This document shows positions 46,974-48,085 of a DNA stretch of 64,000 nucleotides, piece by piece (within the stretch, counting starts at the first letter, position 1; every line of letters starts with the position of its first letter). The DNA comes from Dehalococcoidia bacterium (GTDB taxonomy: Bacteria > Chloroflexota > Dehalococcoidia > Plut-88900), in the NCBI GenBank assembly GCA_965197585.1, contig OZ240215.1:3365520-3429519 (forward strand). Direction: 5' to 3'. A program made the position numbers and the translations under genes. The notes beneath the pieces were generated by a model. The model did not search any database and was not told the DNA's origin. It saw only the letters and a program-made list of their open reading frames with translations.

Positions 46974-47921
46974 CTAGCAACTGTGTTTGGGGAGGGGATT
47001 CCAAGGGGAGTTGTCTCTGATCATGGCGTTAAGGATGGTGAGGAGCTTACGCATGCAGGCGACGAGTGCAACCTTGCCGGGCTTGCCGGCAGCGAGGAGT
47101 TGCTCGTAGAAGGCTTTGATAGGAGGGTTATGGGTTCTGGCGCTCATTGTGGCCATGTAGAGTGCGGATCTGATGTTAGCCCGGCCGCCCCAGATGGAAC
47201 GTCTTCCCCTATGAGAGCCACTGTCCCTGTTCAAGGGAGCGACGCCGACGAGGGCGGCGATCTGCTTACGGTTGAGGGAGCCGAGTTCGGGAAGAGAGCC
47301 TACGAGGGTGAAGGAGGATACGGAGCCTATACCGGGGACATCCATGAGGAGGTTGAGCTTGCCCTTCCAGAGGGAGTTGGAGTTAATGAGGTCGTCAATC
47401 TCCTTGTCCAGGTCGTCCAGTTCCTGGGAGAGGAAGAGGATGTGTTTGTGGAGGCTGGGAAGAAGGGGGTCGAGGGCACGATTGAGGCGAAGGGACTCGG
47501 CGGCTTTCATGTCGATGAGCTGCCGTCTGCGGGCGAGGAGGGCCTTGAGATGGGCTGCTTGAGGGTCTGGGAGAGGGCGGGGTTGGGGCCTGAGGGTGAA
47601 GGCGAAGAGGGCGATGGAGTGGGCGTCGATGGCATCGGTCTTGGCCAGCCTACCGGTGGAGCGAGCGAAGTCCCTGATCTGCCTGGGGTTCATGACTGCA
47701 GTAGGTATCTTAAGAAGGCCACACTCCAAAGCCAAGGGCCTCTCGAGGCCGCCGGTGGCCTCCATGACGATGAGGGTGACATTGAGGTCCTTGGCCAATT
47801 GGAGGATCTCTCTGATACCCTCAGCATCGTTGGGATGTCTGGCGGCCTGGCCTTGGGGGAGGATGTGAAGGTCGAGGAACTGACTACTGACGTCGATGCC
47901 TATGACGGAGTCTTGACTCAT
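46974..47921 (-). CDS. IS110 family recombinase (DEDD RuvC-like + Tnp20)
   Basis: IGIDVS, MEATGG, KTDAIDA, VPGIG, RDSG catalytic Ser, GGRA..R..LYM. Confidence 0.96.
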
Positions 47922-48085
47922 GTTATCCCTTTCTTGCAGGTACGGGTTGTTGACCCGGGCAACTGTACGGGCTTAGATGAGAGAGGGTACGGCGGCCCAT
48001 GCTAGAGCTCGGTCTTGAAGGACCACGATTCCTACGGCCTGCCGCACCCCGAGACCCTAACTCTATCACTGCTTCGTCACACAAG
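46976..48085 (-). mobile_element. IS110-family element (IS621-like), bounded by CT cores
   Basis: Minus-strand junctions GAGGAAT-CT-TGTGT and ACAGTTG-CT-AGGAC; no terminal IRs; 162-nt noncoding left end. Confidence 0.88.
47926..48053 (-). ncRNA. putative IS110 bridge RNA
   Basis: Two stem-closed internal loops carrying AGGAATC/CTCTAG (target guides) and ACAGTTGC/TGCAAG (donor guides) that match the element junctions. Confidence 0.8.

Follow-up and report, generated by a model that had tools for sequence, protein, structure and literature searches.

An IS110-group element of a Dehalococcoidia bacterium that is very probably guided by an IS621-type bridge RNA to an interspersed repeat

The locus that we have analysed raises the question of what directs a small insertion sequence to one particular position of an interspersed repeat of its host genome. 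The element in question belongs to the IS110 group and is located in a 64,000-nt stretch of DNA from a Dehalococcoidia bacterium (assembly GCA_965197585.1, contig OZ240215.1, positions 3,365,520 to 3,429,519), which we refer to as "the window". The first-pass annotation of the window had assigned to this element the architecture of the IS621-type bridge recombinases, and we have found the protein family, the CT core, the two-loop RNA of the left end, the guides and the handshake positions that belong to this architecture. The element is, in our judgement, very probably an IS621-type, bridge-RNA-guided IS110 element that is aimed at the interspersed repeat; this conclusion is drawn from the family of the protein, the boundaries of the element, the constancy of its target, the covariation within the RNA structure and between guides and flanks, and the complementarity of the handshake positions, and the making of the RNA, its start, its binding by the recombinase and the movement of the element via a circle are predicted from the same sequences.

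The boundaries of the element are supported by the comparison of its copies. On the minus strand, the left junction reads GAGGAAT-CT/TGTGT, with the slash marking the junction, the core CT being located at 48085-48084 and the element starting at 48083, and the right junction reads ACAGTTG-CT/AGGAC, with the core CT at 46977-46976; both junctions had been proposed in the first-pass annotation and both are read at these positions. Seven full copies, which we refer to as copies A to G, occur in the same genome, and the element ends that correspond to 46976 and 48083 are exact in all of them. Three copies (A, B and C) are identical over 1110 bp at three loci, which indicates recent movement, and the others are 96.4, 90.6, 87.5 and 87.5% identical. 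The left flank is GAGGAAT-CT in five copies, GAGGGAT-CT in one and CAGGAAC-CT in one, so that, as had been suggested as a check, the flanks of the other copies have placed all seven at the AGGAAT-CT end of the repeat (two with one changed base); the right flank is AGGAC in four copies, AAGGC in two and AAAGC in one, and the CT core is found at both ends of every copy. At empty sites, which are found elsewhere in the genome, both flanks are contiguous and overlap by two bases, hence the core CT is single there and there is no longer target duplication. Exact unoccupied AGGAATCT-AGGAC sites number 18, all elsewhere in the genome. The repeat copies of the window at 21501, 48301 and 49587 had been taken for the empty, CT-GG form of the insertion site; they do carry a CT (at 21502-21501, 48302-48301 and 49588-49587) that is followed in each case by GGGG, but they belong to a different subfamily of the repeat, the GGGG subfamily, and we have rejected them as empty sites in favour of the 18 true CT-AGGAC sites. 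Two more distant IS110-like stretches are found in the same genome (G000:C1:2221833-2222544 and 1851137-1851476), which match parts of the coding sequence with 66-79% DNA identity. The coordinates of all features are collected in the table.

Table. Features of the IS110-group element and of its insertion site, in coordinates of the window
Feature	Positions	Strand	Remarks
Whole IS110-group element	46976..48085	minus	CT core at each end; 1108 bp counting one core (46976-48083)
Left target + core, GAGGAAT-CT	48084..48092	minus	end of interspersed repeat unit ..TCCGAGGCYCCGCGAGGAATCT
Core CT (46977-46976) + right target AGGAC (46975-46971)	46971..46977	minus	6/7 complementary to the right-target guide, including one G-U
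Left non-coding end, 162 nt, predicted to encode the bridge RNA	47922..48083	minus	from sequence, alignment and consensus structure
Target-binding stem-loop	47986..48049	minus	outer stem 48049-48036 with 47997-47986; inner hairpin 48024-48021 with 48014-48011
Left target guide AGGAAUCG	48026..48033	minus	first 7 nt (AGGAATC, 48033-48027) equal left target + core C; core T unmatched
Right target guide GCUCUAG	48002..48008	minus	pairs with top-strand CT-AGGAC
Target-loop handshake guide CA	48000..48001	minus	complementary to donor positions 7-6 (G, T), not to target 7-6
Donor-binding stem-loop	47927..47971	minus	outer CCC/GGG 47971-47969 with 47929-47927; inner hairpin 47956-47953 with 47947-47944
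Left donor guide ACAGUUGC	47959..47966	minus	equals the last bases of the element, ACAGTTG, + core C
Right donor guide AC[CU]GCAAG	47933..47941	minus	discontiguous pairing with CT-TGTGT (core + first element bases)
Donor-loop handshake guide AA	47931..47932	minus	first A complementary to target position 7 (T), not to own donor
Recombinase ORF, 315 aa	46974..47921	minus	sole ORF; fills the element after the 162-nt left end
Candidate extended -10, TGnTAGAGT	48060..48068	minus	sole candidate in a looser scan, 7/12 matches

The recombinase is a member of the IS110 family by all of the comparisons that we have made: it matches PF01548 (DEDD_Tnp_IS110) with an E-value of 2.7e-21 and PF02371 with an E-value of 1.4e-17, and it scores 226.9 bits against the NCBIfam model NF033542 "IS110 family RNA-guided transposase", the cut-off of which is 140. 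Its residues 6-308 align with the solved recombinases of IS621 (8wt6, E 2.4e-37) and of ISCro4 (9t56, E 1.9e-38), the latter being the best match among the solved structures, a likeness that refers to the protein sequence alone. The motifs IGID (D10), EAT (E54), KTDAIDA (D96, D99) and RDSGS are kept with respect to IS621, the catalytic residues of which are described as D11, E60, D102, D105 and S241 (PMC11208158).

The secondary structure of the left end has been obtained from an alignment of 35 distinct related left ends, the consensus of which comprises two stem-loops, each with an internal loop; the stems that the first-pass annotation had named when it described the 162-nt end as folding into two loops are recovered both in the single-sequence fold and in this consensus. 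Standard pairs occupy 98.0% of the cells of the alignment, a share that drops to 35-51% if the 3' partners are displaced by 1-3 columns, and two-sided changes are seen in 14 of the 23 pairs; none of 500 shuffles has reached the observed covariation on four of five measures, and eight of 500 have done so on the fifth, "further standard pair types". The two helices of the target loop (helices 1 and 2) carry two-sided changes in 11 of 16 pairs, with 96-100% of their cells paired, and most of the covariation is held by the outer stem of this loop, where, for example, one pair occurs as UA 20 times, CG six times, GC six times and AU three times; in the donor loop, helix 3 is invariant and helix 4 shows two-sided changes in three of its four pairs. 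The columns of loop 1 are variable and those of loop 2 are nearly invariant, in agreement with the description of IS110 bridge RNAs (PMC11208160), in which the first loop varies and the second is conserved. The bridge RNA is predicted to be about 125 nt long. The start codon of the recombinase directly follows the donor stem, so that the purine-rich ribosome-binding site lies within this stem. In the roughly 33 nt that precede the first guide stem we have found no supported helix, i.e. no 5' stem-loop, which precedes the guide stem-loops in the consensus of 103 orthologues; among the relatives some have it and others do not, and the 5' stem-loop is a trait of the consensus rather than a part of the guide mechanism.

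The two internal loops carry the guides, the positions of which had been proposed as AGGAATC (48033-48027), CTCTAG (48007-48002), ACAGTTGC (47966-47959) and TGCAAG (47938-47933), all of them exactly. According to the rule for IS110 bridge RNAs, the 5' side of loop 1 is identical to the left target and core over 8-9 nt, and its 3' side is complementary to the core and right target over 4-7 nt (PMC11208160). CTCTAG had been described as complementary to CTAG(G): its position stands, but the guide is seven nucleotides long (GCUCUAG) and pairs with CT-AGGAC beyond the CTAG, through five Watson-Crick pairs and one G-U pair, with one mismatch. The pairing that had been proposed for the other 3' guide, TGCAAG with CTTGTG through two wobbles, has been replaced by a better one, i.e. 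the discontiguous scheme of IS621, in which nine RNA bases are laid on seven DNA bases (PMC11208160): in this scheme the right donor guide pairs with CT-TGTGT at all seven positions, with a single G-U. We have also considered whether the loop matches could have arisen by chance: when the 162-nt left end was shuffled 200000 times, the left-target 7-mer appeared in 1908 shuffles, the left-donor 8-mer in 424, and both of these 5' guide strings in only four, on the basis of which a chance origin has been rejected.

The guides can also be compared with the flanks of the individual copies. Copy F carries the right-target guide GCCUUAG next to the flank CT-AAGGC, with seven Watson-Crick pairs out of seven; copy E (GUCUUAG, CT-AAGGC) and copy G (GUCUUAG, CT-AGGAC) pair at all seven positions with one G-U each, and six of seven positions pair in copy D (GUCUUAG, CT-AAAGC), as they do in copies A, B and C (GCUCUAG, CT-AGGAC). 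Among the copies and the close relatives, no part of the left end except the right-target guide follows the right flank, and the left guide is invariant in the subclade. A relative in a sister genome, with 83% protein identity, has the right guide GCCCCAG (GAUCCCCAG in one copy), and all seven copies of this element that were fetched are located at GAGGAAT-CT/GGGG[TC]. Contigs from public DNA runs also contain variants at 48005-48007, where CTC is changed to TCT on the minus strand, which is the very change that separates copies A-C from copies D, E and G. On the donor side, a relative with the right end ACGGTTG has the loop guide ACGGUUGC, and the subclade with the end TGTGT has AC at the 5' positions of the right donor guide, where the relatives with the end TGTAT have AU; each of these donor-side co-changes is probably one evolutionary event, and the proposed right-donor pairing draws on one of them.

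We have also gathered relatives from the class. A protein-pattern scan has returned eight loci in two Dehalococcoidia genome records of the window's genus, and matches at E <= 1e-30 occur in 39 of 401 sampled genomes of the class Dehalococcoidia, that of the window included, most of them with about 50% identity; 40 further copies were taken from multicopy genomes. Of the 84 loci that were considered, seven were dropped for want of a junction motif, and the removal of 14 duplicates of the same place from the remaining 77 has left 63 distinct insertions. The relatives share the donor ends ..AC[AG]GTTG-CT and TGT[AG]T.., and their lengths range from 1095 to 1179 bp. Their junctions were placed by the conserved donor motifs only, so that the guides have not been used to find the flanks that they are compared with, and the left-guide score is the best of five offsets, for cognate and control pairs alike. 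Over the 63 insertions, the left guides match their cognate flanks at 5.13 of seven non-core positions, against 3.35 for non-cognate flanks, and the right guides at 4.41 of five positions, against 2.52; when the sum is taken over the 32 loop classes, it amounts to 9.44 of 12, against 6.00 +/- 0.29 for permuted pairs, and none of 2000 permutations has reached the observed value. One of the relatives, L097 (G217:C7:2080477-2082597), shows a peculiar arrangement: at about 389-430 of the oriented locus there is a 40-nt partial left end, with a full element directly after it, and the CT within its own left-target-guide sequence is the exact point at which the partial left end stops. This arrangement would be expected if an element had inserted into guide-encoding DNA of a copy already resident there and a deletion between both copies had followed.

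The handshake positions provide a further comparison. In IS621, the two bases located 3' of each 3' guide are described as pairing, once the strands have been exchanged, with positions 6-7 of the other DNA, and pairing of the handshake bases with the cognate DNA as blocking the reaction (PMC11208158). The handshake bases of the window agree with both statements: the C of the target loop pairs with donor G7 and the A with donor T6, the first A of the donor loop pairs with target T7, and none of them pairs with its own DNA. Across the 63 insertions, the donor-loop handshake base pairs with target position 7 in 53 (A-T in 14, from two separate lineages, and G-C in 39) and with its own donor in none; for the target-loop handshake base, pairing with donor G7 is found in 61 insertions and pairing with position 7 of the cognate target in none. 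The donor-loop base was anchored on the last [GA]CAAG of the left end, an anchor that has fallen downstream of the true guide in one locus (L068), the handshake base of which also pairs when it is read from the alignment.

The right end of the element has no non-coding nucleotides, compared to the 162 nt of the left end, and the stop codon of the recombinase is completed by the target: the TAG consists of the last base of the element (the core T, 46976) and the first two target bases (46975-46974). The same stop, T/AG, occurs in the intact copies A, B, C and G, and T/AA, also made of the core T and target bases, in copy D; in the copies of the sister genome, the reading frame extends 14-140 nt into the flank, and when the frame is read around the circle it amounts to 368 aa. 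In the relatives of about 50% identity, a TGA stop is located inside a TTGACT box, 17 nt before the junction, and TTGACT, 17 nt and TATCTT span the junction of the ends; the subclade of the window has lost both boxes, and as a result its ORF runs to the very end of the element. The candidate extended -10 of the left end, TGnTAGAGT, is unchanged in every copy of the subclade, although substitutions occur close to it, and a -35-like TTGCTT arises only across the circle junction, from the last five bases of the element and the first, followed by 17 nt to TAGAGT. On these grounds the RNA start site would lie downstream of TGnTAGAGT, possibly with the circle being needed for the -35-like box, and both points are conjectural.

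Several observations weigh against the reading of the element as bridge-RNA-guided, and we have collected them here. Firstly, the guides do not fit perfectly: the left guide is unmatched at the core T and at the first base of a 9-nt pairing, in the three identical copies the right guide meets its own sites with one mismatch and one wobble, and GCUCUAG would pair at seven of seven positions (two G-U, counted by hand) with CT-GGGGC sites, all of which are unoccupied in the genome. Secondly, owing to the relatedness of the 63 insertions, the permutation figure overstates their independence, and the junctions of two loci (L004 and L097) were chosen by hand among several hits. Thirdly, the energy of the single-sequence fold is no better than that of shuffles (z = -0.78), which means that the structure is supported by covariation and not by energy. 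Lastly, as far as expression is concerned, a sigma-70 scan of the integrated copy (46800-48300) has found no promoter, the junction promoter of the relatives is absent in the subclade, two of the seven copies (E and F) contain premature stops, the other five ORFs being intact, and the RNA-library contigs from two runs are near-identical to parts of the coding sequence only (47069-47301 and 47438-47809). Public runs number 22, all listed as contigs, and four of them have been examined; contigs can show neither transcription nor RNA ends, the left end that the RNA-library contigs leave uncovered is no evidence either way, and no contig that joins both element ends was found in these four runs, although contigs cannot show its absence. 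Two joints inside the coding sequence, with skips of 557 and 194 bases, were also seen in the public-run contigs, in one contig each.

In another reading of the element, the recombinase would find the repeat by protein-DNA contacts or by DNA structure, with the loop matches being a coincidence or a by-product; the left-end RNA, if it is made, would then only regulate the expression of the transposase, as was once proposed for ISPpu9 and for sX15/asX7. Beyond the guided bases, a conserved 5' extension of the repeat (..TCCGAGGCYCCGCG) is common to all insertions, the target of ISPpu10 has been reported to contain a structural determinant (10.64898/2026.03.19.712850), the left guide, being invariant in the subclade, shows no covariation there on its own, and the coverage of the RNA-library contigs is confined to the coding sequence. 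However, recognition by the protein does not account for the covariation of guides and flanks across the 32 loop classes, for the changes in the right guide that alone follow the right flank between close relatives, for handshake positions that obey the rule of IS621, or for two 5' guide strings that are so rarely found together in shuffled sequence, and any structural gate of the target would operate in addition to RNA guidance and not in its place. We therefore regard protein recognition as a very improbable explanation.

A second possibility is that the family was formerly RNA-guided, and that the copies of this subclade, having no junction promoter and no stop of their own, are relics that no longer move. 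The loss of the TTGACT box, which holds the stop of the relatives, and of the TATCTT -10, the lack of a promoter at the threshold of the sigma-70 scan and the two copies with premature stops all point in this direction; against it stand the three copies that are 100% identical over 1110 bp at different loci, the five intact ORFs, the stems and guides, which are intact as well, the conservation of TGnTAGAGT within the subclade and the presence of the same architecture in seven copies of a second genome. The relic reading has been rejected on the three identical copies, and very little credence is left to it.

A third possibility concerns the same losses: the subclade may have rewired the expression of its IS110 element, with the 5' stem-loop replaced by the internal extended -10 (TGnTAGAGT). 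Since the TTGACT of the relatives holds their TGA stop, a single loss would have removed the -35 box together with the stop codon. If this were true, the guide RNA and the recombinase would be made from integrated copies, with no need for the circle, and the C-terminus of the recombinase would be set by the site (315 aa at T/AG or T/AA, 368 aa around the circle), with variable recombinase tails at the CT-GGGG sites of the sister genome; the outcome would be a minimal RNA-guided recombinase system of 1.1 kb with a switch that depends on the target. We put this forward as a tentative suggestion, which is rather unlikely to be correct.

Under the reading that we prefer, i.e. guidance by a bridge RNA, the window contains an intact, recently active IS110-group insertion sequence of the IS621 clade, with a 315-aa DEDD/Tnp serine recombinase. 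The 162-nt left end would be transcribed into a bridge RNA of about 125 nt, which would fold into two stem-loops, each with an internal loop, and guide the recombinase. Loop 2 would read the joined ends of the element, ACAGTTG-CT-TGTGT, with ACAGUUGC and AC..GCAAG; after strand exchange, CA and AA, located 3' of each 3' guide, would pair with position 7 of the other DNA, and through recombination at the CT core a circular copy would enter one subfamily of the repeat, which has about 120 copies in all, with no duplication of the target. All features of the IS621 type that can be judged in a nucleotide sequence are present in the window, except the 5' stem-loop, which is absent, and the junction promoter, for which there is only the candidate with 7/12 matches.

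The target repeat had been described as an abundant palindromic repeat; it is abundant and interspersed, but its palindromic nature is not convincing. The 22-mer of the repeat unit occurs in 122 genomic copies with at most three substitutions, 79 on the plus strand and 43 on the minus strand, which amounts to a strand bias, and AGGAATCT is counted 133 times in the genome, where about 60 occurrences would be predicted from its composition. Subfamilies of the repeat are distinguished by the bases that follow the CT, i.e. AGGAC with its 18 unoccupied sites, GGGGC with 14, AACGC with six, and others. A count of sites by right-guide pairing, made with a loose left-target filter that passed 1356 sites, does not enter into our conclusions. 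A weak palindrome, a 5-bp ATTCC/GGAAT stem, can be discerned by eye, but the DNA fold of an empty repeat site (-7.4 kcal/mol, z = -0.49) shows no significant structure.

Other sequences of the window also adjoin this repeat. An IS481-family transposase gene is located at 48301-49600 on the plus strand (ORF 48389-49351), with rve domains and a score of 184 bits against NF033577, below the cut-off of 224; the end of this element (..CAACGAATTACCT.ACA..ACAATTCCGAGGCTCCGCGAGGAATCT) bears a variant of the target repeat unit of the IS110 element. About a dozen copies of this IS481-type end with its repeat occur in the genome, with differing sequences after the CT, and copy G of the IS110 element is inserted right at such an end, from which it appears that the IS481 element carries, or always adjoins, the target of the IS110 element. 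In the right flank, a near-perfect hairpin of about 40 nt (46883-46919; ..CATATCAGCCATGTTGC..GCAACATGGCTGATATG..) is part of a longer repeat of about six copies that starts with the AGGAC target subfamily, and between the IS110 element and the next repeat unit, at 48152-48286 on the minus strand, there is a repeated, G+C-rich structured segment (..CCCCTCTCCCTACGATGGGAGAGGGCTAGGG..) that recurs after many CT-GGGG copies of the repeat. The 3.43-Mb contig as a whole has 30.8% C and 28.4% G on the given strand, a strand asymmetry that is unusual for a whole chromosome.

The element has the following traits in common with IS621 of E. coli (Durrant et al. 2024, PMC11208160; Hiraizumi et al. 2024, PMC11208158): the same two-domain recombinase, a guide RNA from the left end with the target loop before the donor loop, 5' guides that are identical and 3' guides that are complementary to the top strand, a CT core, a repeat as the target, discontiguous pairing of the right donor and handshake guides. 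It differs from IS621 in having no 5' stem-loop and a shorter RNA (about 125 nt, compared to the 177 nt given in PMC11208160), in its 162-nt left end, in the lack of a non-coding right end, with a stop that is completed by the target, in the lack of a junction promoter of the usual form, in a left guide that misses the core T, and in its Dehalococcoidia host. The IS110 elements of about 50% identity from Dehalococcoidia (L042-L108) have the same ends (..ACAGTTG-CT and TGT[AG]T..), the two-loop RNA and lengths of 1095-1179 bp, but they keep the TTGACT (-35) and TATCTT (-10) boxes, many of them have the 5' stem-loop, and their guides read other targets. ISPpu9 and ISPpu10 of Pseudomonas putida, which we compare by description and not by sequence, are also multicopy IS110 elements that occupy one position of a repeated intergenic sequence, either a REP or a conserved intergenic repeat; in ISPpu10, a GC-rich stem-loop of the target is reported as a second determinant of specificity (10.64898/2026.03.19.712850), whereas the repeat of the window has no significant fold.

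An earlier RNA family may belong to the same group of sequences. In the Rfam 15 scan of 46500-48600 (E up to 10) no bridge-RNA family was matched, and the sole match over the left end is RF02234 (sX15), at 47910-48060 on the plus strand, i.e. the strand opposite to the bridge RNA and the recombinase gene, with 39.1 bits (E 1.9e-4), short of the gathering score, which is 55. Against this model, another element of the subclade (L031, 1358-1517 on the minus strand) scores 44.7 bits, and nothing was found at E up to 0.001 in five of six related loci. In PMC3300014, asX7 is described as the complementary partner of sX15 in Xanthomonas, and 10 homologues are counted in a chromosome of Stenotrophomonas; sX15/asX7 may be the left end of an IS110 element that was annotated before bridge RNAs were known, with the sX15 model representing the antisense strand.

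It is already established that IS110 elements use bridge RNAs and target REP elements (PMC11208160), and the NCBI family is named "RNA-guided"; the element of the window is thus a well-supported example of a known system with variant traits. We have found no paper that links IS110 with Dehalococcoidia in the literature searched, and the supplementary catalogues of PMC11208160 may already list the clade. The system is small: the element measures 1108 bp and its recombinase 315 aa, the predicted RNA has about 125 nt and no 5' stem-loop, and the ribosome-binding site falls inside the donor stem. The conventional size of such elements is given as about 1.5 kb (10.64898/2026.08.14.744561); this compactness may interest the engineers of bridge recombinases, and it leaves the known mechanism unchanged. 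For the biology of the family, the element would represent a clean natural bridge-RNA case outside the proteobacterial models, in which, among the copies of this genome and of its sister genomes, the right-target guide alone has changed (GCUCUAG, GUCUUAG, GCCUUAG, GCCCCAG), each form at the matching subfamily of the repeat, as natural retargeting, and in which the handshake base of the donor loop follows target position 7.

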